This document shows, piece by piece, positions 10,056 through 55,813 of a stretch of 64,000 nucleotides of DNA. Origin of the DNA: an uncultured Candidatus Saccharibacteria bacterium (lineage in GTDB: Bacteria; Patescibacteriota; Minisyncoccia; Phycocordibacterales; Zambryskibacteraceae). The notes beneath the pieces were generated by a model, which ran no database searches, was not told the origin of the DNA, and saw nothing but the letters and a program-made list of their open reading frames with translations. Location of the stretch: positions 25,514 to 89,513 of the forward strand of contig CAZDXF010000002.1 of the NCBI GenBank assembly GCA_964509605.1, in the 5' to 3' direction. Position numbers and translations under genes: made by a program. The first letter of the stretch is position 1. Every line of letters starts with the position of its first letter.

Positions 10056-10091
10056 GCAGTAGACAGTGGTCAGTAGTTAGTAGACAGTGAA

Positions 10092-10130
10092 AGGTCGCTA
10101 ACAACCAAAAAACGGCTTTGAACAGCCGTT
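10092..10130 (+). terminator. Rho-independent terminator after fusA
   Basis: caaccaaaaaacggct...agccgttttttggttg stem followed by a T-run. Confidence 0.6.
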
Positions 10131-10276
10131 TTTTGGTTGTTTGGGCTCATTTTGCACCCTCTTTCCAAGCCCTCCCCTTGGAAAGCCTGGATTTGGCTGA
10201 TTAAGGTGAGACATGTTCATAAAAGCCTTGATTTGTTTCAGTTAAGTGTTTATCTTACTAGAAGTAGTTCCCCGCA

Positions 10277-10522
10277 GTGCTCGCCTTCCCCACCCTCCAC
10301 TCTTGCCACGAGGTAATCATGCCCCTCCGTAGCTCGATGTCGGCTGTTGACTTCACTACTGCTCCCAGCGGTATGATGAAGGGCCCAGGTCCGAGAGTCC
10401 CTGTCTTTTCTGGGAACAGCGAACCTTCTACGGAAGAGAGGGTTCGTGAGGTTTTCCGGATGGAGGCTCGGACCAAGATGAATGAGAGGGCGAAGAAGAA
10501 GGCTCGCAAGAGGCGTAGCTAA
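10277..10522 (+). CDS. Small basic-tailed hypothetical ORF in a GC-rich fusA-tuf spacer (could instead be ncRNA)
   Basis: 81-aa ORF with a KKKARKRRS tail and elevated GC. Followed by a terminator hairpin. No recognizable family. Confidence 0.25.
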   Translation: MLAFPTLHSCHEVIMPLRSSMSAVDFTTAPSGMMKGPGPRVPVFSGNSEPSTEERVREVFRMEARTKMNERAKKKARKRRS

Positions 10523-10537
10523 GAGCGAACAAAGCAG

Positions 10538-10580
10538 AAGCCCCCGTCCCGATTTACTGGAACGGGGGCTTGAATTTTTA
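10538..10580 (+). terminator. Rho-independent terminator
   Basis: gcccccgtcc...gaacgggggc stem, then a T-run. Confidence 0.5.
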
Positions 10581-10587
10581 AAAAAAT

Positions 10588-10615
10588 TTGACTATTTCAC
10601 TCCCTTTGCTATGAT
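10588..10615 (+). promoter_or_regulatory. Putative sigma70-type promoter for tuf
   Basis: TTGACT (10588-10593), 16-nt spacer, TATGAT (10610-10615). Confidence 0.4.
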
Positions 10616-10754
10616 ACTTCCCACGCTTTTGGCGTTTCTACCCCCTTGTCTTGGTAGGGTAGTTTTGTTTTTTTAAAAATTATTTAATAGCTAATTATTT
10701 GAATTTACCAAATTCTCGCGCGGTAAATTCAGGTAAGTATTTAAAAAAATTATT

Positions 10755-11945
10755 ATGACAACATTTGATCGTTCAAAGCCACACGTAAACGTAGGTACAA
10801 TTGGCCACGTTGACCACGGCAAAACCACTCTTACAGCTGCAATTCTCAATGTTTTGAGCCGAGCTGGAAAGAAGGCAACAATAAAAGGAGTTGACCAAAT
10901 TGACAAAGCTCCTGAAGAAAAAGCAAGAGGAATTACAATTTCTCTTTCTCACAATGAGTATGAGACCGACGCTCGTCACTATGCTCACATAGACGCTCCT
11001 GGACACGCTGACTACATTAAAAACATGATTACCGGTGCCGCTCAAATGGACGGCGCAGTTCTTGTTGTTGCAGCAACAGACGGAGTTATGCCACAAACAA
11101 GAGAACACGTTCTCTTGGCTAAGCAGGTTGGTGTTCCTAAAATCATCGTTTTCCTTAACAAGTGCGACATGGTTCCTGATAAGGAGCTCATTGACCTTGT
11201 CGAAGAGGAAGTTAGAGAGCTTCTCACAAAGTATGAATATGATGGTGCTAATGCACCTGTTATAAGAGGTTCTGGTCTCAAGGCTCTTGAAGCTACTGGA
11301 ACAGACGATGAATGGTCAAAAGCTATTCTTGATCTTGCAAACGCTCTTGATACGTACATTCCTTTGCCAGTTAGAGAGACAGATAAGCCATTCCTTATGC
11401 CAGTTGAAGACATCTTCTCAATTGAAGGAAGAGGAACCGTTGTTACGGGAAGAATTGAAAGAGGAACAGTTAAAGTCGGAGAAGAAGTGGAGGTCATCGG
11501 TCTTAAAGAAACAGCAAAAACTACTGTTACTGGAATTGAAATGTTCAATAAGTCTCTTGATTCTGGAATTGCGGGAGACAATGCTGGAATTCTCGTTAGA
11601 GGTTTGAAGAAAGAGGACATTACAAGAGGTCAGGTTCTAGCAAAGCCAGGTTCTGTTACTCCTCATACAGAATTTGAAGCAGAAGTTTACATCTTGAAAA
11701 AGGAAGAAGGCGGAAGACACACTCCATTCTTCTCTGGTTATAAACCTCAGTTCTACATTAGAACAACAGATGTGACCGGAGAGGTTACTTTGGCAGAAGG
11801 TGTTGAAATGGTTATGCCAGGAGACACTGTTACATTCAAAGTTAAGCTTGTTGCTCCGGTTGCTTTGGAGGAAAAACAGAGATTTGCTATTAGAGAGGGA
11901 GGAAAAACTGTTGGTGCAGGAGTTGTAACTAAAGTTGTTGCATAA
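10755..11945 (+). CDS. tuf: Elongation factor Tu
   Basis: [18 protein letters not shown] motifs; 396 aa. Confidence 0.95.
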
Positions 11946-43298: not shown

Positions 43299-43552
43299 AT
43301 TTTTTTAAAATCCTTTCTGGCGGTGTATTTTAAAAATAGCTCGAACTGCATTCCCTCGCCGAGCTTCGCGCGGCTCGGGTGCGGCGGGGCAAAAATGAGC
43401 GGCTCCGCCTCGCACACTGACAATTTTAAGTTTTTCTTTGGCGGAATACAAATTCGAGCGTGCGAAGCACCCACAAAATAGTTCTTTCAAACTCAAAAAG
43501 AAAGGCGCCGTACCCGGAGGTCGTGCGCCTGATTGCGACCGCATGACGCGGT

Positions 43553-43891
43553 CTAGTCCTTCTTGCCCTGGACATACTCGGGAACCTCGGCGAGCATCTC
43601 CGAGAGCATCCAGCCGGCCACAGCTTCCTTGTCCTCGTGCGAGAGGCCGAAGGTGCCGAGCAGGCCGAGGAAGCAATCCTTCTGGTGTCGCTGTACCGTC
43701 TCGTCGCCGGACTTCCATTTCCAGTTGGCGATGTTGGCACCGCCGAAGAAGACGCGGCTTGCGTAGCTCGACCACGGATTGTAGAGTTTGAATTCGGGCG
43801 GACAGAGCTTCGCGAGCTCACGCTCGTTGGAGAGTCCACCGAATGCCTGGCCGTGACCAGCGAACAGCGGGGACGCCGTCTGCGTTTCCAT
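43553..43891 (-). CDS. Hypothetical protein encoded in the high-GC island segment
   Basis: ATG at 43889-43891, preceded by AAGGAGGTG 7 nt upstream. 112 aa (METQTASPLFAGHGQAFGG...). The overlapping ORFs in other frames are GC artefacts. Confidence 0.5.
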   Translation of the reverse strand: METQTASPLFAGHGQAFGGLSNERELAKLCPPEFKLYNPWSSYASRVFFGGANIANWKWKSGDETVQRHQKDCFLGLLGTFGLSHEDKEAVAGWMLSEMLAEVPEYVQGKKD

Positions 43892-44127
43892 CGTATTCAC
43901 CTCCTTCAAGGTTTAGTTTCCAACCTAGACGTCGTGCCTAAGTTGATAAGTACCATAGCACGACTTGAATTATCAGTCAAGAAACGACCGAGCGTTGCTT
44001 CTTGGAAAAAATCAGAATGAAAAAATTTCTTTTACCCTTATTGATAAAAGCATTTCTTTTTCGCCAAAAATTCCATACGAATTAGCCGCCGAGCGAAGCG
44101 AGGCGGACAGCCTGCATTTGCAAAATC

Positions 44128-44320
44128 CTTTCTGCGGTGATGTATTAGCCTTTGCGCGAACTCATTTTGAACGAAAGGAATGATGCGCGCCTCGTCCGCT
44201 CCCTTCGGTCGCGATCCCAAAACCAAAAATTTTCCTTCCTTTCTTAGATTTTCGGCGGGGGGTGTGGGGGGGAGCCGACAAAAAATGGAAAGGAAATTTT
44301 TGGTTTTGATTCGCCGCTTC
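44128..44320. repeat. 193-bp inverted repeat, left copy (IR-A)
   Basis: Perfect reverse complement of 45783-45975. Begins with the core CTTTCTGCGG. Confidence 0.9.
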
Positions 44321-44533
44321 AGACTACAAAAAGAGTAGATATTTGTATTTTAACACATTTGACTACTCTTTTCTCCGTCTTCGCGGCGAGACGAGGCGCT
44401 TCCAATTCGGTTGCGCTGAAGCGCATCATATTTGTATTGTGCTTGCCCCGCCCGCCCAGTGCGCGCACAAAGCCGTGCCGTTTTGAAGAAATATTATAAA
44501 ACGGCAAAACGGCGGGGATGGCTCCCTAGAAAA

Positions 44534-45481
44534 CTAATAACTAAAATTGACAGTCACGCTATCGCTGGAAGAATCAACTTTTCCGCTACTTGCCCCGCAA
44601 GTAAGTTGATACGTAGTCACGCCTGTCTTTTCATTTCCTGTCCAAACATTTTCAGATCCACTGGTGGACTTGGCACCAGACCAATATGTATCGCCTGAAG
44701 CAGTACAGTAATCAGAATTGTTTGATGTCCAACTGAAATTAGAGTAGCCAGCCGATTTTGTTATCGGGCCATCTGAATTGTTTATTTTTAGATCAGCTGA
44801 TGGCAGTTGCTGTGTTAACTGAAATGGCACTGTCACTGGATTCGAAGAATTAGTGCCGCCAGCTCCGGTACAGGAAACTGTATATGTCGTAGTCTGGGAA
44901 AGGGATACCGCCATCGACCCAGACGGTGATAATTTTGATTTTTCGAAATTACAGTAAGTCGCATTTGTTGATGACCAGTAAAGTGTAATTGTTCCGGGCT
45001 TCCCGTCAGAAACAATTGACGTTGGGTTCGCGTATAGGTACACGCTCGGAGACGGAATTGTTGTCTGGATAGGGTTAGGTGTCGGTGTAGGATTCGTTGG
45101 GGTTGGAGTTGTAACCGACGGAATTACTGATGCTGTGTTTCCACATTTACTGTTCCATAAGTTCCGTGTCTTTGGGCCATAAGTGCCGAAACCAAAAGTG
45201 TTCGATGGAATTCCAAGCCACGCTTGCAGTTGCGACACTCGACCGCCTGGCTCGGTGTCAAAATTGCCATAAGAGAGGTCGGCAAAGGTACTGCACGACA
45301 GCACACCTGTGGACCCCTGCAATTGGGCAATCTGTGCTTGAAGCGCTTTAATCTGCGCGAGCAAGGCCTGTATTTGAGCGGCAACATCAGTTGTTTGTGC
45401 AAAAGTTGGCGTTGCAAAGCCAATGGACACAAGAATTCCAAGCGTCAAGAATCCTGTGGCAATATATTTTTTCATGGTCAT
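44534..45481 (-). CDS. Secreted surface protein: signal peptide, Ala/Gln coiled coil, Thr/Pro linker, Ig-like beta domains
   Basis: N-terminal signal MTMKKYIATGFLTLGILVSIGFATPTFA, then AQIQALLAQIKALQAQIAQLQ, then TPTPTNPTPTPNP, then Ser/Thr/Gly-rich beta domains. Confidence 0.65.
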   Translation of the reverse strand: MTMKKYIATGFLTLGILVSIGFATPTFAQTTDVAAQIQALLAQIKALQAQIAQLQGSTGVLSCSTFADLSYGNFDTEPGGRVSQLQAWLGIPSNTFGFGTYGPKTRNLWNSKCGNTASVIPSVTTPTPTNPTPTPNPIQTTIPSPSVYLYANPTSIVSDGKPGTITLYWSSTNATYCNFEKSKLSPSGSMAVSLSQTTTYTVSCTGAGGTNSSNPVTVPFQLTQQLPSADLKINNSDGPITKSAGYSNFSWTSNNSDYCTASGDTYWSGAKSTSGSENVWTGNEKTGVTTYQLTCGASSGKVDSSSDSVTVNFSY

Positions 45482-45494
45482 TTATTATTGATAA

Positions 45495-45716
45495 TTATTT
45501 AATAAAATACTTAATATCCTTACCATATAGTTTAGCAAATCGTTGAAGTTCGACAACATCAACTCTTTGCTGTCCTGATTCAACATTTGAGATGTGCGAT
45601 TGCGGACGTTTCAACTTTTTTGCCACTTGCACTTGGGTCAATCCTACTTCTTGCCGAGCCGCCCGCAACCGCTCAACAAAATAGGCATATTCCTTTGTGT
45701 GGATTGACTTAACCAT
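45495..45716 (-). CDS. XRE-family helix-turn-helix transcriptional regulator
   Basis: LTQVQVAKKLKRPQSHISNVESGQQ HTH motif. Putative promoter at 45720-45780 (minus strand). Confidence 0.75.
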   Translation of the reverse strand: MVKSIHTKEYAYFVERLRAARQEVGLTQVQVAKKLKRPQSHISNVESGQQRVDVVELQRFAKLYGKDIKYFIK

Positions 45717-45782
45717 ATGATACTATGGTCTATCCAAACATTCAATATCCAAACTTTAGATATTGTGATAAACTAGATTTTG

Positions 45783-45975
45783 GAAGCGGCGAATCAAAAC
45801 CAAAAATTTCCTTTCCATTTTTTGTCGGCTCCCCCCCACACCCCCCGCCGAAAATCTAAGAAAGGAAGGAAAATTTTTGGTTTTGGGATCGCGACCGAAG
45901 GGAGCGGACGAGGCGCGCATCATTCCTTTCGTTCAAAATGAGTTCGCGCAAAGGCTAATACATCACCGCAGAAAG
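45783..45975. repeat. 193-bp inverted repeat, right copy (IR-A')
   Basis: Perfect reverse complement of 44128-44320. Ends with CCGCAGAAAG. Confidence 0.9.
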
Positions 45976-46096
45976 AAACTTCCAAATCCGAAAGGTGGGA
46001 AGAAGCCCGCGCCGAAGGCGCGGGGCTAGGCAAAATGTTCCGTCGCTCCGCGACGAATTGGGACGGAATGGGCAGGGCGAAATGGGCGGATTTGTC
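45966..46096. repeat. 131-bp inverted repeat, left copy (IR-B); shares the CCGCAGAAAG core with IR-A'
   Basis: Reverse complement of 47512-47642 with one mismatch. Contains the hairpin gcccgcgccgaaggcgcggggc. Confidence 0.85.
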
Positions 46097-46122
46097 CTTG
46101 TTTCAATCTAAAAGCAATTTAT

Positions 46123-47691
46123 ATGTCCAAACCAAAGTATTTTCTTTACGCTCGCAAGAGCATCGAGGACGATGACCGACAAGTGATGTCCATTGAGGCA
46201 CAGCTTTTTGAGTTGCGAGAATTGGCGCGTAAAGAAAATCTTGAAATTCTTGAGGAATTTCAAGAGTCGAAAAGCGCAAAGACGCCTGGACGCGAGGTAT
46301 TCGGCGAAATGATGTTAAAAGTAGAGAAATTGGATGGTGTCGGCATATTAGCGTGGCATCCCGATCGCCTCGCGCGTAATTCGATTGACGGTGGACGAGT
46401 AATTTACGCCGTGGACACTCGCAAGGTTGTGTCTTTGCGCTTCCCGACATTTTGGTTTGAACCAACCCCGCAAGGGCTCTTTATGTTGCAAGTGGCGTTT
46501 GGGCAGAGCAAATATTATTCTGATAACTTATCCGACAATATTAAGCGAGGTGTCCGCCAAAAATTGAGACGTGGCGAATGGTTGAACTTAGCTCCCTTTG
46601 GCTATCAAAACAACCCGCGTATTAGAAATATTGAACCTCATCCGACAAATGCTCGCGTGGTGAAGTTAGCTTTTGAGGAATACGCCAAAGGTTCGCACAC
46701 TTTTATTTCGCTCGCGCAATTTTTGGCGGACTTAGGTGTGGTAACAAAACACCAAACGCCACTCGCCAAAGTTTCCATCAAACGACTTCTTACTCATCGA
46801 GCATATCTCGGTTTCGTGAAGCATGGACAAGAATGGTTTGATGGAAACTTTGAGCCAATTATTTCTCCCGCATTGTTTGAAGCCGTGCAGAAAGTATTGC
46901 AAACGAAGGAAAGGCCGCGCAAAAGGAAAATCAAGCATGATTTTCCTTTTACCGGACTTTTTCGATGTGGCGAGTGTGGCAGTATGATTTCCGCACAGTG
47001 GGCAACTGGAAAGTCTGGTCGTCGTTATCGGTATTATCGGTGCTCGAAAAAGCGCGGCCATTGTTCGCAAGCTTATTTACAAGAAAGTGAACTTACGAGG
47101 CAAATCTGTGCACGGCTTCAAACAATTTCGCTTTGCGATCGCTATACCGACTGGATGTTAGATAAAGTGAAACTGTGGGAGCACGAGGAAATTGGAGCGT
47201 CGCAAAGCGAGGTTCAAAATCTTTCCGATAGTATCAAAGCGAACGAGGAGCGCATGGAAAAACTACTCTCGGCGTATTTAGATGGTGATGTACCAAAAGA
47301 GGTTTACCTTAAACGAAAAGATGTTCTCATGCGCTCTCTCGCCGCTTTGAAAGAGAAAAAGAAAGATTTTGAACGCGGAAGAAAAAATTGGGTCGAACCC
47401 TTGCGGGAATGGATTTTAGATATGAAACAAGCCGATTTTTTGTCCTCTTCGTCTGATTTGTACCAAATCAAGTCGTTCGTCCAAAAAATCGGAACGAACC
47501 CCTTGGTTCGTGACAAATCCGCCCATTTCGCCCTGCCCATTCCGTCCCAATTCGTCGCGGAGCGACGGAACATTTTGCCTAGCCCCGCGCCTTTGGCGCG
47601 GGCTTCTTCCCACCTTTCGGATTTGGAAGTTTCTTTCTGCGGAAGGGGAGGGATTCGAACCCTCGGACCGATTTCTCGGTCAACACATTAG
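46123..47691 (+). CDS. Large serine recombinase (resolvase/invertase catalytic domain + recombinase domain + zinc ribbon)
   Basis: N-terminal YARKSIEDDDRQ...SIEAQ catalytic serine motif, DRLARN, C-terminal CGECGS...YYRCSKK zinc ribbon. The ORF tail reads through IR-B' into the tRNA, so the true stop is uncertain. Confidence 0.8.
   Translation: MSKPKYFLYARKSIEDDDRQVMSIEAQLFELRELARKENLEILEEFQESKSAKTPGREVFGEMMLKVEKLDGVGILAWHPDRLARNSIDGGRVIYAVDTRKVVSLRFPTFWFEPTPQGLFMLQVAFGQSKYYSDNLSDNIKRGVRQKLRRGEWLNLAPFGYQNNPRIRNIEPHPTNARVVKLAFEEYAKGSHTFISLAQFLADLGVVTKHQTPLAKVSIKRLLTHRAYLGFVKHGQEWFDGNFEPIISPALFEAVQKVLQTKERPRKRKIKHDFPFTGLFRCGECGSMISAQWATGKSGRRYRYYRCSKKRGHCSQAYLQESELTRQICARLQTISLCDRYTDWMLDKVKLWEHEEIGASQSEVQNLSDSIKANEERMEKLLSAYLDGDVPKEVYLKRKDVLMRSLAALKEKKKDFERGRKNWVEPLREWILDMKQADFLSSSSDLYQIKSFVQKIGTNPLVRDKSAHFALPIPSQFVAERRNILPSPAPLARASSHLSDLEVSFCGRGGIRTLGPISRSTH
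47512..47642. repeat. 131-bp inverted repeat, right copy (IR-B'); abuts and overlaps the 3' end of tRNA-Ser
   Basis: Reverse complement of 45966-46096. The core CTTTCTGCGG at 47633-47642 includes the tRNA's last bases. Confidence 0.85.
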
Positions 47692-47726
47692 CAGTGTGCT
47701 GCATTCGACCGCTCTGCCACCCTTCC
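47640..47726 (-). tRNA. tRNA-Ser (anticodon GCU), class II with long variable arm
   Basis: Acceptor GGAAGGG/CCCUUCC, D-stem GCA/UGC, anticodon stem GCACA/UGUGU with loop CUGCUAA, variable arm GACCGAGAAAUCGGUC, T-stem GAGGG/CCCUC, T-loop UUCGAAU. Confidence 0.8.
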
Positions 47727-47783: not shown

Positions 47784-48443
47784 TTAATGAGCCATTGTAA
47801 AAGCCAATACTTTTTTAGCGCCTGCGGAAATCAGTGTTTTTCTAGCTTCTGACAGGGTGCTTCCGGTTGTTACCACATCGTCTATCAAAATTATCTTTGC
47901 GCCCGATATTTCATAACTGTTTTTGATTTCAAAACACCCTTCAAGATTTTTCAACCACTCCTTTCTTTTTAAAGAAGTTTGCGGTAGCGTGTCTTTTTTT
48001 CTAATCAAAATTTCTTTATTGTATTTAAGCAAACCACTCTGATCATTTTTTAAAATTGCTTCACAGATAAGCTCTACTTGGTTAAAACCCCGTTCAGTTT
48101 TTCTCTTTTTAGAAAGGGGAATTGGAATAAGGATAAAGTTTTTGTTTGCACTAGCCACCAGCTCATCTCCCAGGTTGTCTATGATTCTTTCGTAAATTAA
48201 ATTGCTAACCGCTTGTGAAAGTTTCTTATTTTCTTTGTATTTTATTGCCCAGACCAAAGCTCTTACTCTTCTGTCTCCATAATCAAACACAGATTCTGCC
48301 CACGATATCTTGTTATCAACACACTGCGGGAGGTAAGATAGCTTATTTTCATCAGCCATTTTTTCTAATTCCAAAACAGCTTTTTCTTTGGGAAATATGA
48401 AATCAACAATCTCTCCTGCTATTTTGGTCAGAAGACTTAACAT
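47784..48443 (-). CDS. comF: Competence protein ComF (phosphoribosyltransferase domain)
   Basis: C-terminal PRTase motif ILIDDVVTTGSTL. Confidence 0.7.
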   Translation of the reverse strand: MLSLLTKIAGEIVDFIFPKEKAVLELEKMADENKLSYLPQCVDNKISWAESVFDYGDRRVRALVWAIKYKENKKLSQAVSNLIYERIIDNLGDELVASANKNFILIPIPLSKKRKTERGFNQVELICEAILKNDQSGLLKYNKEILIRKKDTLPQTSLKRKEWLKNLEGCFEIKNSYEISGAKIILIDDVVTTGSTLSEARKTLISAGAKKVLAFTMAH

Positions 48444-48489
48444 ACAATAATTCTATATCAGTATTTACCCTTCGTGCTATAATTTTCCT

Positions 48490-49605
48490 ATGGCCAACAT
48501 CTTTGGAACTCTTTTCCACAAAAAAAGCGGAAGTGTCTTGGGTATAGACATAGGCACCTCTGCTATTAAAGTTGTTCAACTCAAAAAAAGCGGTGGAAAG
48601 GCGATTCTTGAGACATATGGCGAACTGGCCCTTGGACCATATGCGGGGGCAGAAATAGGACAAGCTACAAATCTTCCGACAGAAAAGATAGTTGAAGCCC
48701 TTTCCGATCTGATGAGAGAAAAAGAAGTCAATCTTTCTTCAAATAAGTGCGGTATGGCAATACCTTTTTCTTCAAGTCTGATGACTCTTTTGGAGATGCC
48801 TTCTCTTCCCACAAAGCAACTTGAGACAATGATTCCTTTGGAGGCTAGAAAATATATTCCGGTTCCGATTTCCGAAGTGGTACTTGATTGGTCTGTTATC
48901 CCGAAAGATGAGAAAGAAGAAGAGGAACAGGAAGAAAAAGAGAAGCACGGTCCAGCCAGAGTAAAAAAGTCAGATATTTTACTTGTTGCAATTCACAATG
49001 AAACTTTAAATAAGTATCAGGAAATAATGACAAAGACTGGTCTGGAAGCGAGTTTTTTTGAAATAGAGATTTTTAGCACCCTTCGAGCCGTTTTGGACAC
49101 AGAGGTAAAGCCCGTGATGCTTATAGATATGGGAGCTGCTACTACAAAACTTTATATTGTGGAAAGAGGAATTGTGCGCGCATCTCACACTGTAAACAGA
49201 GGATCACAAGACATAACTACAACAATATCTCAATCATTGGGTGTGCCTGTGGCCAGAGCAGAAGTTTTAAAAAGATCTGTTGGAGCTATGTCTGGAGGCG
49301 AAGTAGATTTAAGAGAAATTATCCGTATTGGTTTGGCACACATTTTTTCAGAAACCAATCAGGTAATACTTAACTATCAAAAAAGATACAATAAAGCTAT
49401 TGAAAAGATTGTCATGGTTGGCGGGGGTTCTGCGCTCAAAGGGTTACCCGAGCTTGCAAAGAGCAGTTTTCAGTTTGAAGTAGAAGCGGGCAATCCGTTT
49501 TTGAAAGTAGAAGCTCCTGCATTCTTGGAAAAAGTGCTGAGAGAGACCGGACCAGAATTTGCTGTTTCTGTTGGAGTTGCCCTTCGGCGTCTCCAAGAAA
49601 ACTAA
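48490..49605 (+). CDS. pilM: Type IV pilus assembly protein PilM
   Basis: Actin-like ATPase fold (GIDIGTSAIKVV). First gene of the pil locus. Confidence 0.85.
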   Translation: MANIFGTLFHKKSGSVLGIDIGTSAIKVVQLKKSGGKAILETYGELALGPYAGAEIGQATNLPTEKIVEALSDLMREKEVNLSSNKCGMAIPFSSSLMTLLEMPSLPTKQLETMIPLEARKYIPVPISEVVLDWSVIPKDEKEEEEQEEKEKHGPARVKKSDILLVAIHNETLNKYQEIMTKTGLEASFFEIEIFSTLRAVLDTEVKPVMLIDMGAATTKLYIVERGIVRASHTVNRGSQDITTTISQSLGVPVARAEVLKRSVGAMSGGEVDLREIIRIGLAHIFSETNQVILNYQKRYNKAIEKIVMVGGGSALKGLPELAKSSFQFEVEAGNPFLKVEAPAFLEKVLRETGPEFAVSVGVALRRLQEN

Positions 49606-49716
49606 ATTCTTTTCTGTGGATTAGAAATTACCACACTAATGTTTCAAGTGTAGTATAATATTTTCAAAAGAGAAGAACGAAATTTCTTGGCTTTTCAAAA
49701 CTAAAATATTTATAGG

Positions 49717-50421
49717 ATGGATCCAAAATTTCAACCATCTTTCATACCAAAAAAAGCAGACTCTGGTCTGGACTCTTTCAAGAGGCCATCTAGCACCTCC
49801 GGAGGTTTGTTTTATCTACTTGGCGTTTCTTTATTTGTTCTTGCTTTGATTTCAGCAACAGGTGTTTTTGTGTATGAAAAATACTTAAACAGTCGAATAT
49901 CAAAGATGCAGGCTGATCTAGAAACAGCAAGACAGGCTCTAAACCCCGAACTAGTAAAGGACCTTTCTAGATCTCATGCGAGAATGATGTCTGCCAGAGA
50001 GATATTGTCAAAGCATGTTTCTATGACATCTTTCTTTTCTCTTTTGGGTTCTCAAACTCTTCAGGCCGTAAGTTTTAACGATTTTTCTCTAATGTCTTCT
50101 GGTGATGGAGCAATAACTGTAGAAATGTCCGGAGAATCTAGAGATTACAAAACAGTTGCATTGCAGTCTGAAATATTTTCCAACAATCCCTATTTTAGAA
50201 ACCCGTCTTTTTCAGGTCTTGATTTAAATGAATCTGGAAATGTTATTTTTAGATTTAAATCTGGTATTTCTCCGGACTTGGTTTTGTATGAAAAAACTTT
50301 TGAAGTAAAGCCAGTTTCGGAGATAACTCCACCGCCAGCCTCATTGCCCGAAGAATCAGCAACTGATTCAGCCGAAACTGAGCCGGTCGGAAATGAACAA
50401 GGCCCAGTAAACCCATCATGA
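49717..50421 (+). CDS. pilN: PilN-like protein
   Basis: Single TM then coiled coil; position after pilM. Confidence 0.55.
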   Translation: MDPKFQPSFIPKKADSGLDSFKRPSSTSGGLFYLLGVSLFVLALISATGVFVYEKYLNSRISKMQADLETARQALNPELVKDLSRSHARMMSAREILSKHVSMTSFFSLLGSQTLQAVSFNDFSLMSSGDGAITVEMSGESRDYKTVALQSEIFSNNPYFRNPSFSGLDLNESGNVIFRFKSGISPDLVLYEKTFEVKPVSEITPPPASLPEESATDSAETEPVGNEQGPVNPS

Positions 50422-50966
50422 GAAGTTTAATGCCCATACTTTTAATATCTGTTTCCTTAGCACTTTTCTATGTTTTCATAGATCCGCGTCTTGAGGCCGT
50501 CAGAGATTTGGTTGAAGAAGAAAATCAGTATCAAGAGGCAATCGCAAAAGCTGAAGAACTTATGGTTGTAAGGGACCAGCTTCTTTCTCAATACAACTCA
50601 ATTCCAGATGGAGATTTGGATAGACTTGAGAGAATAGTTCCAGATTCAGTCAATTTTGTTAAACTTGTTGCTGATATAGACTCTGTTGCTGGTAGATACG
50701 GAATAGCTCCCCGTGGCATAGAGGTGAAGGAAGTACTAGACGAATCTTTGGGTATAGGTGATACCGCAAGTTTGACGCCATATCTTTCCTCGACAATCAC
50801 CTTTTCGTTTGTAAGTTCTTATGAAAATCTCGTAAACTTTCTAACCGACTTGGAAAAGAGTCTTCAGATGATTGATATAAAGTCCATCACTTTCTCAACG
50901 GAAGGGGAAGACAGCGACCTTCACAACTTTAATGTGTCTTTTGACACATATTGGTTAAGACAATAA
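50418..50966 (+). CDS. pilO: PilO-like protein
   Basis: Single TM plus coiled coil. Start overlaps the pilN stop. Confidence 0.55.
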   Translation: MRSLMPILLISVSLALFYVFIDPRLEAVRDLVEEENQYQEAIAKAEELMVVRDQLLSQYNSIPDGDLDRLERIVPDSVNFVKLVADIDSVAGRYGIAPRGIEVKEVLDESLGIGDTASLTPYLSSTITFSFVSSYENLVNFLTDLEKSLQMIDIKSITFSTEGEDSDLHNFNVSFDTYWLRQ

Positions 50967-50971
50967 ATTTT

Positions 50972-51277
50972 ATGCAACTTGGAAACTTAAAACAATTTTC
51001 AGCCGCAGTCATCATAATAGCCGTTATAGGTTTCGGTATTTATTTTTTGTTTATTAGAGGAGGTGGAGAGGAAGCTGAAATTTTGTTTGATGAATTTGGT
51101 TATCCAATAGAAGCGCAGGCTGTGGGTCAAGACTTGATAAGTCTTCTTGAAGAACTTCAGTCTGTTTCTTTTGACTCTTCTTTATTCAGATCTCCCGCTT
51201 TTGTGAATCTGACCGATTATTCCGTAGATTTAGGCACACAGCCCCAAGGAAGAACAAACCCGTTTGAGGGAATCTAA
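50972..51277 (+). CDS. Small single-TM protein (PilP-like?)
   Basis: Position and topology only. Confidence 0.3.
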   Translation: MQLGNLKQFSAAVIIIAVIGFGIYFLFIRGGGEEAEILFDEFGYPIEAQAVGQDLISLLEELQSVSFDSSLFRSPAFVNLTDYSVDLGTQPQGRTNPFEGI

Positions 51278-51326
51278 TTTTATCCTCTGTATATAAATAG
51301 TTTTTTGTTCTACAATTTCAAGCAGG

Positions 51327-53108
51327 ATGAGTCTTCTTGATACTTTAGCTGAAAAAAAAATAATCAATAAAGCTGATATTCCTTCTATTTTGGATGAAGC
51401 AGAATCGGCTGGTATTACTGTTGAGCAAGTTTTAATAAAAAGTGGAGTTGACCCAAGTGTTATTTTAAAAAGCAAAGGAGATTTTCTTGAAATTCCAGTT
51501 AAGGATTTAAAGGGGAAAGAAATTTCTGGAAAAATTTTGGAGTATATTCCAGAGGAATCAGCGTCTCATTATAGGTTTTTACCTTTGGGTGTAAAAGACG
51601 GCGTCTTGGAAGTCGGGGTTGTTGATCCAGACAATATAGAGGCTCGTGATGCACTGAATTTCATTTCTTCAAAAATCGGGATGCCGTTTAAAATTTTCCT
51701 TATTTCGGAACAGGATTTTGAATCAGCAATGGGAGGATATAAAGGTTTGTCTGGAGAGGTCACGCAAGCTCTTTCAGAGCTTGAAACAGAGCTCAAGGGC
51801 AAAAAAAATGAGCAGGATGAAGACGAAGAGGATACGGGAGCATCAGCGGAAGAGACGGATGCTTCTGCAGATTTGTCCGACATTGATACAAGTAAGTTAA
51901 AAAAAGACGGGAAGGAAGAAAAAATAATTGAGGATGCACCAGTTACAAAAATAGTCGCCACGATTTTGAGATACGCTACAGACGGAAACGCTTCAGACAT
52001 TCACATAGAAAGGATGCGCGACAATGTTCGCGTCAGATTTAGGGTTGACGGCACAATGAATACAAGTTTGGTCCTACCAACGAAGATTCATTCAGCAGTT
52101 GTGGCTCGTATAAAAATTCTCTCTAGTATGCGTTTGGATGAGAAAAGAAAACCCCAAGACGGAAGATTCAGCGCAAAGGTGGGAGACAAAAGAATAGATT
52201 TTCGTGTGTCTACTTTTCCGGCATATTTTGGAGAGAAAGTGGTGATGAGAATCTTGGACCCACAAAAAGGAGTTAAATCTCTAGATGAACTAATGCTCAC
52301 AGAGAGAAACCTCCGCCTCATAAGGGAAGCTCTCAAAAAACCTTACGGAATGGTCCTTATTTCAGGTCCGACCGGTTCGGGAAAATCAACAACTCTTTAT
52401 TCAATGTTGAATGAAGTAGATAGAGAGCACAAAAATGTTTTGTCTCTGGAAGATCCTGTTGAGTATACGATTGAAGGAATGAACCAGTCTCAAATTCGTC
52501 CTGAAATAGGTTATAACTTTGCTACAGGTCTTAGAACCACTTTGCGTCAGGACCCGGACATAATAATGGTTGGTGAGATTAGAGATAAAGAGACCGCACA
52601 GCTTGCTATCCAAGCCGCTCTCACTGGACACTTGGTCTTTTCTACAATCCACACCAACAATGCTGTAGGCGTCATTCCTCGTCTTATAGATATGGGAGTG
52701 GACCCATATCTTATTGCCCCCACTTTGGTTTTGGCCATTGCTCAGAGACTCGTTAGAGCTTTCTGTCCAGGTGCTGGTAAGCCCATTCCAGTAGAAGGAA
52801 GTATAAAATTGATGCTTGAGAAACAGTTTGCGGATTTACCAGAAAAATACAGAAAAGAGATAGAATTTGGTAAAGAGGTTTATGAAATATCTCCGACAGA
52901 AGATTGTCCAAATGGTACAAGGGGTCGGTATGCTGTAATGGAAGTTATGGAAATGGACAGAGGGGTGGAGGAGATAATTCTAAAAGGAGGCACAGAAATA
53001 GATTTAGCAAAAGCGGCACGAGAGAGAGGTATGCTTTCTATGAAAGAGGACGCAATACTCAAGGCATTTAAGCGACTCGTTCCTTTTGAGGATGTCGGGA
53101 CATTGTAA
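51327..53108 (+). CDS. pilB: Type IV pilus assembly ATPase PilB (GspE family)
   Basis: Walker A GPTGSGKSTT, Asp box, His box, tetracysteine-like region. Confidence 0.9.
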   Translation: MSLLDTLAEKKIINKADIPSILDEAESAGITVEQVLIKSGVDPSVILKSKGDFLEIPVKDLKGKEISGKILEYIPEESASHYRFLPLGVKDGVLEVGVVDPDNIEARDALNFISSKIGMPFKIFLISEQDFESAMGGYKGLSGEVTQALSELETELKGKKNEQDEDEEDTGASAEETDASADLSDIDTSKLKKDGKEEKIIEDAPVTKIVATILRYATDGNASDIHIERMRDNVRVRFRVDGTMNTSLVLPTKIHSAVVARIKILSSMRLDEKRKPQDGRFSAKVGDKRIDFRVSTFPAYFGEKVVMRILDPQKGVKSLDELMLTERNLRLIREALKKPYGMVLISGPTGSGKSTTLYSMLNEVDREHKNVLSLEDPVEYTIEGMNQSQIRPEIGYNFATGLRTTLRQDPDIIMVGEIRDKETAQLAIQAALTGHLVFSTIHTNNAVGVIPRLIDMGVDPYLIAPTLVLAIAQRLVRAFCPGAGKPIPVEGSIKLMLEKQFADLPEKYRKEIEFGKEVYEISPTEDCPNGTRGRYAVMEVMEMDRGVEEIILKGGTEIDLAKAARERGMLSMKEDAILKAFKRLVPFEDVGTL

Positions 53109-53142
53109 TTTTTTTTAAATTTTGTGTGGTAGAATTTTCTAT

Positions 53143-53535
53143 ATGAGCAAAAAGAAAGACTTCAGTATTCTTTTGGTGGATGACGACAAATTTTTGTTGG
53201 ATATGTACGCTACAAAATTTAAAAGTGAAGGTTTTACGGTTCACACTTCTTCAGGGGCGCAAGACGCCTTGAATAAGCTGAGGGGAGGAGAAGTGCCCGA
53301 TATTTTGGTTTTTGATATCATAATGCCTCAAATGGATGGCTTAGAACTTTTGGAAAATGTTCGAAAGGAAGGCCTAGCAAAAACTTCTGTTGTGGTGATG
53401 CTTACAAATGAGACAGATCCAGCTAAAATTGAAAAAGCTCAATCTTTGGGAATAGATGGTTATATTGTGAAAGCCACTCTTATTCCTTCCGAGGTTGTTG
53501 ATGAGGTTATAAAAATTGTAGAAAATAAAAAATAA
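53143..53535 (+). CDS. CheY-like single-domain response regulator (PilH-like)
   Basis: Receiver domain with DD...D...K residues. Sits between pilB and pilT. Confidence 0.75.
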   Translation: MSKKKDFSILLVDDDKFLLDMYATKFKSEGFTVHTSSGAQDALNKLRGGEVPDILVFDIIMPQMDGLELLENVRKEGLAKTSVVVMLTNETDPAKIEKAQSLGIDGYIVKATLIPSEVVDEVIKIVENKK

Positions 53536-53539
53536 AAAT

Positions 53540-54598
53540 ATGGAACACAGCAAACTGTTAGACGAACTTATAGATATAGTAATAAAAGAAAATGGCTCGG
53601 ATATACACCTCTCAGAGGGGCGAGTGCCCGTTATTAGGGTTTCGGGTTTTTTAATTCCTTTGACGACAATACCTGCGGTTACCAAACAACAAGTAGACGA
53701 AATTCTTTCTTCTCTTTTGACTCCAGATAACAAAAAAGAGTTTCTTGAGACAAGAGAGATGGATTTCGGCTTCTCTCATTCAGCCGGAAGGTTTAGAGGA
53801 AACGCTTTTTATAGACTTGGAAAAATTTCTATTGCTTTGCGTCTTATTCCTAAAAAGATAAGAACATTAGAAGAACTCAACCTTCCGCCAATTTTGGGAT
53901 CTTTTGCGGAGCGACAGCAAGGCTTTTTTCTTGTTGTGGGCCCTACTGGGCATGGCAAATCTACAACACTTGCTACGCTTATAGAAAAGATAAATCAGGA
54001 AAGACTTGAGCATATTGTGACCGTAGAAGATCCTATTGAATACATTTTTGAACCAAAAAAGGCAATTATTGATCAGAGAGAAGTGAAAGTGGACACGGTA
54101 GATTTCCACAGAGCTTTGAAGAGTGTTTTTAGACAAGATGTAGATATCTTGATGATTGGTGAAATGAGAGACTCAGAAACGATTGCTACAGCTGTAACAG
54201 CCGCTGAAACTGGGCACTTGGTACTTTCAACTCTTCACACAAATACTGCATCTCAGACAGTAGATAGAATAATAGACTCCTTTCCTGCGGATCAGCAGGA
54301 CCAAATTAGATCACAGCTGGCAAGTAGCTTGGCGGGAATATTTTCTCAGAGACTTGTTCCTAGAATTTCAGGCGGTCTCATCCCTGCATACGAGCTTCTT
54401 CTGAACAATACTGCAGTTGCAAATCTAATAAGAGATAAAAGGACCCATGAGATAAACACTGTTATAGAAACAAGCACGCAGGACGGTATGATAGATCTAA
54501 ACAGATCTTTGGCGGGTCTAGTGCAAGCGGGGGAGATTACCGTTGAAAACGCATATTTGTTCTCCACAAATTCAAAGATGCTTCAGAAGATGCTCTAA
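53540..54598 (+). CDS. pilT: Twitching-motility retraction ATPase PilT
   Basis: Walker A GPTGHGKSTT and the PilT-type C-terminal region. Confidence 0.9.
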   Translation: MEHSKLLDELIDIVIKENGSDIHLSEGRVPVIRVSGFLIPLTTIPAVTKQQVDEILSSLLTPDNKKEFLETREMDFGFSHSAGRFRGNAFYRLGKISIALRLIPKKIRTLEELNLPPILGSFAERQQGFFLVVGPTGHGKSTTLATLIEKINQERLEHIVTVEDPIEYIFEPKKAIIDQREVKVDTVDFHRALKSVFRQDVDILMIGEMRDSETIATAVTAAETGHLVLSTLHTNTASQTVDRIIDSFPADQQDQIRSQLASSLAGIFSQRLVPRISGGLIPAYELLLNNTAVANLIRDKRTHEINTVIETSTQDGMIDLNRSLAGLVQAGEITVENAYLFSTNSKMLQKML

Positions 54599-54607
54599 CA
54601 TAAAAAA

Positions 54608-55813
54608 ATGCTTTTTAATTACAAGGCAATAGATAATAACGGGGAAGAAAAAGTCGGAAGTATAGATGCGATAAATATTGATGTTGCAATAAGTTCGCTT
54701 CAGAAAAGAGGATTGGTTATTTCTTCCGTAACTCCAGTTGAGGAAGAGCTTATTAAAAAGCAGTTTTTTTTCCGTAGAAGAGTTTCTGGAAAGGATATTG
54801 TTATTCTATCCAGACAGTTGTCTACTCTTTTTGAAGCACAGGTTCCAGCTCTGAGAATTTTCAAACTTATTTCAGCCGAAGCTGAAAATTTGGTTTTAAG
54901 AAAAAGTCTTATTGAAGTGGCTGACGACCTTCAGGGTGGAAGTTCAATTTCCAAAGCGCTTTCTAAGCATCCGAATATTTTTTCTGATTTTTATGTAAAC
55001 ATGGTTCGTGCTGGAGAAGAGACTGGAAAGCTAAATGAGACATTTAGTTTTCTTGCAGATTATTTGGACAGAAACTACGAGGTTACATCAAAGGCCAGAA
55101 ATGCCCTTGTTTATCCAGCATTTGTCATCACTGTTTTTATTGGTGTTATGGCTCTGATGTTTACAATGATTATTCCAAAAATCAGCGTTATTTTGGTTGA
55201 ATCTGGTCAAGAGCTCCCGATTTATACAAAAGCAGTGATTGCAGTGAGCGATCTGTTTGTAAATTACGGCATCTTTATGCTCGTCGGTCTCATAATTGCC
55301 AGCTTTTTTGGTATTAGATATGTCAGGACTTCTGCAGGAAAATACGCCTTTGATAGTTTCAAACTAAGTGTTCCTTATGTCGGTGATCTTTATAGAAAGC
55401 TATATCTTTCTATAATTGCCGACAATATGAATACCATGGTGGCTAGTGGTATTCCAATGTTGAGAGCCATTGAAATTACGAGCAATGTTGTGGGTAGCGC
55501 AATTTACAAGCAAATCTTGGATGAAAGTTTGATATCGGTAAAAGGTGGAAGCTCTCTTTCAAATTCTCTTTCTCAATACGCAGATATACCAGGGATTTTG
55601 GTTCAGATGATTAAAGTTGGAGAGGAAACCGGAGAACTTGGAAGTATTTTGAAAACTATGGCGAAGTTTTATCAAAGAGAAGTGATGAATGCCGTAGATA
55701 CTTTGGTAGATCTTATAGAGCCGGTAATGATAGTGCTTTTGGGTCTTGGTGTGGGCGTTCTTTTGGCTTCTGTATTAATGCCTATATACAATATTGCTTC
55801 TACCGCCGCTTAA
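54608..55813 (+). CDS. pilC: Type IV pilus platform protein PilC (GspF family)
   Basis: Two GspF-like repeats and 3 TM helices. Confidence 0.85.
   Translation: MLFNYKAIDNNGEEKVGSIDAINIDVAISSLQKRGLVISSVTPVEEELIKKQFFFRRRVSGKDIVILSRQLSTLFEAQVPALRIFKLISAEAENLVLRKSLIEVADDLQGGSSISKALSKHPNIFSDFYVNMVRAGEETGKLNETFSFLADYLDRNYEVTSKARNALVYPAFVITVFIGVMALMFTMIIPKISVILVESGQELPIYTKAVIAVSDLFVNYGIFMLVGLIIASFFGIRYVRTSAGKYAFDSFKLSVPYVGDLYRKLYLSIIADNMNTMVASGIPMLRAIEITSNVVGSAIYKQILDESLISVKGGSSLSNSLSQYADIPGILVQMIKVGEETGELGSILKTMAKFYQREVMNAVDTLVDLIEPVMIVLLGLGVGVLLASVLMPIYNIASTAA

Follow-up and report, generated by a model that had tools for sequence, protein, structure and literature searches.

A probable tandem of small integrative elements at a tRNA-Ser gene belongs to a large serine recombinase family widespread in Patescibacteria

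Here, we analysed a 64,000-nt stretch of DNA from an uncultured Candidatus Saccharibacteria bacterium (assembly GCA_964509605.1, contig CAZDXF010000002.1, positions 25,514 to 89,513), called the window in the following, and in particular an island rich in guanine plus cytosine (GC) at positions 43313-47642 of it, which borders a tRNA-Ser(GCU) gene. In all likelihood, this island consists of two small integrative elements in tandem at the 3' end of the tRNA gene. The right element (44128-47642, ~3.5 kb) is intact and comprises a cargo module and the gene of a large serine recombinase, while the left 0.8 kb (43313-44127) are what remains of an older element, distantly related to it, whose recombinase has been lost. 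An earlier, sequence-only reading of the window had stated that no such systems are known from the candidate phyla radiation. This was a fair account of the literature searchable here, in which we found no published description of the family (coverage is incomplete, hence this is absence of evidence only), but relatives are encoded in at least 589 species-representative genomes and were found in at least 586 metagenome stretches. The family is very widespread in Patescibacteria and apparently undescribed.

The island differs markedly in composition from its surroundings. Its GC content is 47.3%, compared to 38.2% in the remaining 64-kb window, and a windowed run over other 4.3-kb stretches gave a mean of 0.382 (standard deviation 0.014) and a maximum of 0.415, against 0.473 in the island. 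The contrast noticed from the letters was thus real, although the background had been set too low at ~35%. The island ends, as had been proposed, at the 3' end of the minus-strand tRNA-Ser(GCU) gene (47639/47640-47726, called by ARAGORN and Rfam), the last 3 nt of which are covered by a core sequence at 47633-47642. Four such cores had been claimed. Three exact matches to CTTTCTGCGG are present in 64 kb, at 44128 (plus strand), 45966 (minus strand) and 47633 (plus strand), and the fourth copy, CTTTCTGGCGG at 43313, is a variant with a one-base insertion. Taken by itself, the 10-mer is statistically unremarkable, as tolerating one mismatch gave 7 matches in the window where 3.9 are expected. 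The copies gain significance because the three exact ones delimit two long inverted repeats on the outside: IR1 (44128-44320 and 45783-45975) is identical in 193/193 nt, IR2 (45966-46096 and 47512-47642) in 130/131 nt with the single mismatch at 46014, and both adjoin each other such that the middle core at 45966 is common to them. All four cores are genuine recombination junctions with modular arms, and the left arm AAAATC is indeed common to the sites at 43313 and 44128, as is the GGAAGTTT arm to the inverted site at 45966 and the tRNA-side site. IR1 encloses the genes of a 315-aa protein and of a 73-aa XRE-type helix-turn-helix (HTH) protein, both on the minus strand, and IR2 encloses the gene of the 522-aa large serine recombinase.

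In the following, the sites are numbered 1 to 4 from left to right; P denotes the arm at the 3' end of the recombinase gene and P' its counterpart towards the cargo. Site 4 (core 47633-47642, plus strand) has the order P arm, core, tRNA and represents attR: its P arm is the right arm of IR2 (47512-47632, plus strand), recognised by IR2 identity and the P consensus and located within the 3' end of the recombinase open reading frame (ORF), and the tRNA-Ser(GCU) gene (47640-47726, minus strand) contributes the B' arm as target gene. Site 3 (core 45966-45975, minus strand) is an inverted attP-type site with both arms intact, which reads P arm, core, P' arm on the minus strand. Its P arm is the left arm of IR2 (45976-46096, minus strand), an inverted non-coding copy with a sharp, conserved inner boundary that stops 27 nt 5' of the recombinase start codon, and its P' arm is the right arm of IR1 (45783-45965, minus strand), an inverted copy assigned by IR1 identity. 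Site 2 (core 44128-44137, plus strand) is a hybrid of an old P arm, the core and a new P' arm, in which an old attR would have served as target and would thereby have become the attL of the intact element; the new P' arm is the left arm of IR1 (R1; 44138-44320, plus strand; CGAAC at 44157-44161), identified by IR1 identity and the P' consensus. We compared these junctions with 160 related loci (designated by L-numbers below), whose recombinases are 42-92% identical to that of the window. In ~70 of them, site 4 is likewise composed of P, core and tRNA and site 3 of P, core and P', with an unrelated flank, core and P' at site 2. The core common to the three sites spans only 4-13 nt, of which ~3 nt are the very end of the tRNA and a few more follow it downstream, for example TGCGG at tRNA-Ser, TGTGA at tRNA-Glu, TGTGG at tRNA-Ala and GGTCG at tRNA-Pro. 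The P arm follows the consensus ...GAAGTTTCnnTTTGTG and the P' arm the consensus TGAAATnnTAACCTTTGCnCGAACC, while the opposite, chromosomal arm of attB shows no conservation across loci.

The recombinase proposed for the island is encoded at 46123-47691 (plus strand; 522 aa). The protein matches the Pfam families Resolvase (PF00239, residues 7-153, E=2e-19), Recombinase (PF07508, E=2e-13) and Zn_ribbon_recom (PF13408, E=1e-10), residues R11 and S13 of its catalytic motif YARKS are invariant in 27 homologues, and its closest solved relatives are the integrases of SPbeta (9dxh; residues 9-416, E=7e-12) and A118 (4kis). Judged by these matches, it is a bona fide large serine recombinase. More than 5000 homologues were detectable, the best 120 of which are 69-93% identical and derive almost exclusively from assemblies of Patescibacteria; the exact sequence was not on record in the public records searched. 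Viral, phage and plasmid collections yielded no close relative (identity ≤25% to any phage or plasmid enzyme searched), and the recombinase is essentially absent from IMG/VR, with one match at 37%. There is thus no evidence for a phage or plasmid vehicle. The best NCBIfam match is CcrB with 83 bits against a cut-off of 900, and the cut-off of XisF was likewise far from being reached. The last ~60 codons of the gene cross first the P arm and then the core, and reach 50 nt into the tRNA antisense strand. Homologues are conserved through ...EVSxCG, the translated end of the P arm plus core, and diverge afterwards, many of them continuing as GGIRT, which is the antisense translation of the tRNA T arm. 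At the other end of the gene, the non-coding left arm of IR2 opens an upstream ORF of ~45 codons (46037-46170, plus strand; MFRRSATNWDGMGRAKWADLS...), which runs out of frame over the recombinase start codon. In some homologues (P0001, P0092 and P0147), the upstream frame is fused to the recombinase, resulting in the N-terminal sequence ...GGFVLVSYLK. It is unlikely that the upstream ORF is truly coding.

In 86 loci, the end of the right arm falls within the terminal bases of a tRNA or tmRNA gene that is convergent with the recombinase gene. Thirteen isotype classes of targets were observed (Glu 24, Ser 17, Pro 14, Ala 10, Arg 6 and tmRNA 3, besides Lys, Leu, Gly, Trp, Asn, Ile and one suppressor-type call), and insertion at the 3' end of the tmRNA gene ssrA was confirmed separately for L039 (8526-8917), L072 (1965-2352) and L075 (1893-2294). 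Right flanks that resemble the tmRNA cases are also present in L051, L060, L068 and L132, where ARAGORN made no call. According to Mageeney et al., serine integrases were "not known for targeting tRNA genes", with 14/297 cases that did so (PMC7192596). How could closely related enzymes recognise such different genes? A possible answer lies in the motif CGAAC, which the P' arm shares with the tRNA T-loop, located farther from the core in the P' arm. In the tRNA-Ser of the window, it is found at 47656-47660, i.e. at +14 from the core, and across the family the first base of CGAA is at +14 on the side of the tRNA but at +20 on that of P', with a shift of 6 bp in 41/47 loci and of 5 bp in 5/47. 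In large serine integrases, the outer DNA-binding domain (DBD2) is positioned 5 bp farther in on half-sites of attB than on those of attP (4 bp in SPbeta), and this difference sets directionality (PMC11722253). As the observed register shift resembles the published rule, the family fits the canonical logic of attP x attB recombination, and we infer that the CGAA motif is the DBD2 site. The pattern suggests that the recombinase reads the T arm of tRNA and tmRNA; since the T arm is their most universal feature, this would explain the many targets among close relatives.

Both the P and the P' arms contain GC-rich hairpins ~45-65 nt from the core (47540-47600 and 46008-46025 in the window, also found in L002-L081), and a second hairpin, GTCGC-GGA-GCGAC, is located farther in. 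From lineage to lineage, the stems show co-variation, and elements of low GC content have AT-rich stems, which suggests a structural role of the hairpins as DNA or RNA. The apparent protein conservation of 'FVAxRR' may in fact be conservation of the hairpin.

A syntenic relative without the island was found in L088, and the search for an empty tRNA-Ser site that had been recommended was hence successful. L088 is a distant relative (ComF 58% identical) that shares the gene order PilM-ComF-tRNA-Ser(GCU)-x-DUF2177-x-RecG and a nearly identical tRNA, which is followed by unrelated sequence, with neither island nor repeats. The site downstream of its tRNA-Ser is thus empty. In three further samples with the same ComF protein (L089-L091, Zambryskibacteria-like), the tRNA-Ser(GCU) gene is followed at ~8700-11000 by differing restriction-modification islands; neither the recombinase nor the inverted repeats were present in the sequence seen. 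The tRNA-Ser(GCU) locus as such appears to be a general hot spot for variable DNA.

The leftmost site had been explained by inversion, but it reflects the stacking of an older element in tandem. Site 1 (43301-43350, plus strand) is composed of the flank TTTTTTAAAATC, the core CTTTCTGGCGG at 43313-43323 and the P'-type arm TGTATTTTAAAAATAGCTCGAAC, in which CGAAC begins at +19 from the core, the P'-arm register of the family. We assign it as the attL of the older element, an intact relative of which is represented by L175 with a recombinase 42% identical to that of the window. L175 has the order recombinase, P / CTGTCTGGCGG / P', gene of a 112-aa protein, inverted P' arm. At site 1, identity to the L175 attL end amounts to 84%, window positions 43317-44040 match its cargo module at 84%, and 44015-44139 match its P arm and core at 92%. 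The L175 matches thus outline a relic at 43324-44127 with a GC content of 53%, which has lost its recombinase gene and internal attP. A direct repeat of ~28 nt is present at both deletion end points in L175 and explains this loss. What remained of the recombinase gene is its degenerate 3' end together with the P arm (43990-44127, plus strand), now the left arm of site 2, as indicated by alignments to 47465-47642 (the 3' end of the intact recombinase gene) at the DNA level and by the protein match DKSxxFxxxIPxxxxAER to recombinase residues 464-481. The relic also retained the older element's cargo gene (43553-43891, minus strand; GGAGG precedes its start; a mechanically called ORF with TTG start spans 43553-43909), recognised by its homologues and its position in L175. 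The encoded 112-aa protein has no Pfam or NCBIfam match and 121 homologues at 48-87% identity in assemblies of Patescibacteria, many on very short contigs; in L175, the gene (1860-2198) adjoins the internal attP and takes the position of the HTH gene in other elements.

The alignments indicate that the attR of the older element had been the target of the newer one. A resident attR of the type P / core / tRNA would thereby serve as target for a different incoming element, and such stacking is expected if only the tRNA half of attB matters. Further tandem arrays are present in L007, in L012 with three elements and in L084. Two elements of L012 are separated (8276-8454) by a piece of a tRNA-Ser 3' end (AGACGGTGGGATTCGG...) together with ~180 nt; some stacking events therefore appear not to have been precise at the resident attR core.

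The layout of the intact element recurs throughout the family. Inverted repeats with a median length of 126 nt surround the recombinase gene in 119/160 loci, and in 65/69 of those in which both gene ends are visible. A second repeat of 70-434 nt adjoins the first in 31 of the 57 loci with at least 2.5 kb of upstream sequence and encloses 0.6-7.7 kb of cargo, which in the family includes restriction-modification systems, surface proteins and pilin-like genes. The HTH gene (65-73 aa, XRE) is the only conserved partner gene of the recombinase; where homologues were found, they lie at the end proximal to site 3, on the same strand and divergent from the recombinase gene in ~27/27 loci. The family was also found on contigs of 0.4-0.8 Mb and on the closed 995-kb chromosome CP060229, where two tRNA genes carry one element each (L018 and L023). 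Near-identical recombinases (>90%) were found at different tRNA isoacceptors and in different lineages. One type of P' arm (...CCCACTTCGCACGCGCGGAGCGCGTGGTGGCTT) is shared by L002, L004, L007, L013, L031, L035 and L063, which differ in their P arms and in the tRNA targeted (Ser, Leu, Glu and Ala), and such mixed pairings indicate an exchange of cargo modules between recombinase lineages. Public contigs very often start 50-250 nt 5' of the recombinase gene (e.g. L002, L003, L015, L024 and L026), and some end in fold-backs (L082).

The alternating orientation of the sites had been read as the outcome of integration at a tRNA followed by recombinase-mediated inversions. The first half of this claim agrees with the presence of foreign DNA at the 3' end of the tRNA-Ser gene, but the orientation is not a record of inversions. 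The inverted middle site in particular, taken for an inversion product, is an intact attP-type site found at the same place and in the same orientation across the hundreds of elements of the family. Hence, the inverted attP with its long repeats is a constant, inherited feature rather than the trace of local inversions. In our view, it is quite improbable that the sites form an active system for inversion of several segments as in shufflons or in Hin, which would flip the cargo module (44128-45975) and/or the recombinase gene (45966-47642) and thereby vary the expression of the surface protein or of the recombinase itself. Such a system would account for the three sites of alternating orientation, the long near-perfect inverted repeats and the location of the recombinase in an invertible-looking segment, as is the case for hin, and the concerted evolution of the arms implies that they do recombine with each other. 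In L083, moreover, the recombinase module is robustly flipped relative to the tRNA and the HTH gene, with arms that belong to two different lineages and are only 87% identical, which precludes a mis-assembly; L025 and L104 are possible further cases, the sequences of which end inside the gene. Inversion of the recombinase module thus appears to occur naturally, but to be rare or short-lived. The recombinase is convergent with the tRNA in 86/86 scored loci, among them 46 convergent and 0 co-directional cases with imperfect arms, for which a wrong path of the assembler is excluded by this very imperfection. The end and strand of the HTH gene are equally constant, and 11 contigs that stem from different samples and carry an identical recombinase all agree in their arrangement. 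No coding segments would be exchanged by the inversions, and canonical large serine integrases do not synapse pairs such as those available here, i.e. a middle site of two P-type half-sites with outer attL and attR sites (PMC11722253). The shuffling module envisaged by the sequence-only reading is therefore at odds with the family-wide data, from which the flip in L083 is the one robust deviation. L082 was considered as an excised or flipped form and rejected, as its 399-nt terminal inverted repeat is the path of a graph assembler through identical arms.

A very unlikely alternative is that of a fixed or domesticated relic, in which recombinase and repeats of an immobile element are either kept for a host function or decaying. 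Many members of the family combine decayed arms (77-95%) with an intact recombinase ORF, the left element of the window clearly is a relic, and no free form was found in the viral, phage and plasmid collections searched. Immobility is difficult to reconcile with the near-perfect arms (193/193 and 130/131) and uninterrupted recombinase gene of the intact element, with its absence from the syntenic relative L088, with recombinases >90% identical at different isoacceptors and in different lineages, and with a GC content 9 points off that of the host. An assembly artefact, i.e. chimeric fold-backs generated by the assembler or during amplification, can practically be dismissed. Such repeats do give rise to fold-back contigs, as in L082, and the frequent contig breaks upstream of the recombinase gene mentioned above would fit, but the same layout was recovered in >100 independent assemblies including the closed chromosome CP060229 and the contigs of 0.4-0.8 Mb, dozens of loci have non-identical arms that assemblers cannot confuse, and the junctions coincide with conserved cores.

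We thus favour the tandem of two integrative elements, for which the following mechanism is probable. The large serine recombinase would recognise the T arm of the tRNA, with the P' arm offering the same CGAAC 6 bp farther from the crossover, and would perform conservative attP x attB recombination with the crossover within the last few bases common to all sites. The site at 43313 would then be the old attL, that at 44128 the old attR turned into the new attL, that at 45966 an intact inverted attP and that at 47633 the attR. Excision would restore an attB that joins ...CCCCTTCCGCAGAAAG to GATTTTAAAAAAATATG, and the junction of the resulting circle would run from the 3' end of the recombinase gene and the P arm via the core and the P' arm into AGACTACAAAAAG. 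But, why should an integrated element retain a second, inverted attP? Our leading guess is that this copy serves regulation from the control region between the divergent HTH and recombinase genes, as an operator for the recombinase and/or the HTH protein. Orientations with the recombinase downstream of the tRNA promoter may be unstable, and the internal attP may also be part of a free circle that carries attP twice. Several other models of mobility were considered and set aside, namely an excision between the inverted ends, a duplication by replication or primed from a hairpin, a single strand that folds into a duplex attP and the transfer of a linear fragment by double crossover, because each of them contradicts conservative serine recombination or predicts isomers that were not observed.

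A number of observations weigh against the favoured reading. Neither an excised circle nor a restored attB nor an alternative isomer of the window element was seen in public sequence, and no recombination directionality factor was identifiable. A circle with two identical inverted attP sites should yield two isomers of equal frequency, of which only one was seen; the missing isomer implies that the simple life cycle is incomplete. The repeat arms are near-identical within elements yet divergent between elements, which calls for a homogenising process that we cannot name. Finally, the register shift of 6 bp is one more than the published 4-5 bp. As regards the first point, the only other public sequence of the strain consists of short Logan unitigs (SRR15237813), which are 100% identical to the window, break at the repeats and are uninformative on orientation, and L100 (arms 91% identical) fits a circular permutation and a tandem array equally well. 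As regards the arms, their identity is 100% in 52/119 elements and decreases to 77% in others, a decay with age that speaks for the favoured reading, and their inner boundary is sharp and conserved, ~27 nt 5' of the start codon and near codon 463. A gradient of identity away from the core, as expected from cleavage-induced gene conversion, was not seen across the arms; the first 20 nt are merely better conserved.

A bolder interpretation, which we regard as rather unlikely, takes the internal inverted attP and the long arms for a new device of serine integrases, either a reversible invertase of the recombinase's own gene or a circle with two inverted attP sites comparable to the 2-micron plasmid. 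As attP and attR carry identical P arms, their recombination would invert the recombinase gene and regenerate both types of sites. The orientation relative to the strongly transcribed tRNA gene could then gate the recombinase, which would be off if convergent and on if co-directional, and the element would lock into the orientation found in nature, with integration and excision controlled without a directionality factor. If true, this would constitute a family-wide mechanism of gene flow in Patescibacteria.

The cargo of the intact element comprises two genes. The larger one (44534-45481, minus strand) codes for a 315-aa protein whose translation features a hydrophobic, signal-like N-terminal segment, a Pro/Thr-rich linker and a repeated C-terminal region; Pfam matches were sub-threshold only, no NCBIfam match was found, and an identical gene is present on a Logan contig from SRR15237813. 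The second (45495-45716, minus strand) encodes the XRE-family HTH protein of 73 aa (Pfam HTH_31 and HTH_3), divergent from the recombinase gene. A scan of the island for promoters and terminators gave counts not above the shuffled expectation, with one plausible -35/-10 pair immediately 5' of the HTH gene and none for the recombinase. Each copy of IR1 contains a 28-nt AT-rich palindrome (44218-44308 and 45795-45885; 86% complementary) with a 35-nt G-rich loop, CGGCGGGGGGTGTGGGGGGGAGCCG, and a block that resembles this region is also found in the related elements L082 and L083. In the Rfam scan of the island, only the tRNA exceeded its gathering score; a match to Plastid-psbl-rps4 at 47640-47691 (plus strand), antisense to the tRNA, reached 51.9 bits against a gathering score of 68 and is almost certainly spurious. 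Beyond the tRNA (47784-55000), the window carries a competence and type IV pilus cluster with ComF-like, PilM, PilB/MshE-like and PilT-like ATPase and response regulator genes, which is syntenic in the relatives L088-L092.

If confirmed, the family would add a new class of targets to the repertoire of serine integrases, as the clade is apparently devoted to the 3' ends of tRNA and tmRNA genes, and the proposed reading of the T arm provides a testable model for shifts of specificity between tRNAs. The family is very common in Patescibacteria, i.e. in reduced and largely uncultured bacteria, for which little is known about mobile elements and the routes by which genes flow. A compact recombinase with its attP and a target present in every bacterium might be a starting point for engineering these organisms. 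In practical terms, the family's repeats are a systematic cause of contig breaks, fold-backs and possible mis-joins in patescibacterial assemblies. The conserved inverted attP with its homogenised arms matches no known life cycle of serine integrases and may indicate a new regulatory or mobility mechanism.

Among known systems, the large serine integrases of phages and integrative elements (phiC31, Bxb1, A118/LI and SPbeta SprA) share with the element a three-domain protein including a coiled-coil region (assigned here by homology), a short shared core, an outer motif in shifted register between attP and attB and hybrid attL and attR sites. In contrast to them, identity is ≤25%, targets are the 3' ends of tRNA and tmRNA genes instead of protein-coding genes, only one half-site of attB is conserved, the recombinase ORF runs with its 3' end into attP, a directionality factor is not recognisable, and a second, inverted attP with arms of >100 nt is always kept inside the integrated element. 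Staphylococcal cassette chromosome (SCC) elements and their Ccr recombinases offer a parallel in the small cargo cassettes, the large serine recombinases, the 3' end of a housekeeping gene as target and the accumulation in tandem at the same site. SCC elements are not known to have an internal inverted attP, and the elements described here differ further in the low CcrB score given above, in a single recombinase instead of a pair and in a tRNA or tmRNA target instead of rlmH. Islands with tyrosine integrases at tRNA and tmRNA genes (Islander-type, tycheposons) resemble the family in target class and gene end, in tandem arrays and in variable cargo such as restriction-modification systems and surface proteins. 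Their recombinases belong to another superfamily, and ~3 nt of the tRNA are duplicated here instead of tens of nt; no recombinase of the Phage_integrase family was found in 43300-47700.

The inversion systems Hin/Gin/Cin and the R64 shufflon likewise have a recombinase in or beside segments with inverted sites of alternating orientation. Hin, Gin and Cin are small serine recombinases that act with an enhancer, and the R64 shufflon relies on the tyrosine recombinase Rci and 19-bp sfx sites; these systems exchange promoters or coding ends and occur in both orientations. Here, by contrast, the orientation is fixed and the sites are of the attP, attL and attR types. The island differs from a shufflon in its serine-type recombinase, its fixed orientation and the lack of alternative coding ends among its ORFs, and from Hin/Gin in the size of its recombinase and in the 86:0 ratio of convergent to flipped loci in two scans, L083 being the one flip found elsewhere. 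The yeast 2-micron plasmid holds its FLP/FRT system inside 599-bp inverted repeats. A hypothetical circle of the intact element would resemble it, with ~3.5 kb, two unique segments and two inverted blocks of ~330 bp holding the recombination site, but would have a serine instead of a tyrosine recombinase, no replication gene and a non-canonical attP x attP reaction. SSV-type archaeal integrases are tyrosine recombinases with attP inside the int ORF, and their gene is split on integration. A recombination site within the recombinase ORF and an altered gene end upon integration are common to both, but only the last ~15 codons are exchanged here, the gene remains unsplit and the recombinase is of the serine type. 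By analogy, the element would thus appear to work like a serine-integrase islet and to stack like SCC cassettes. It is set apart from these two by its dedication to tRNA and tmRNA 3' ends, by an attP that overlaps the recombinase ORF and by the constant internal inverted attP with its long arms.

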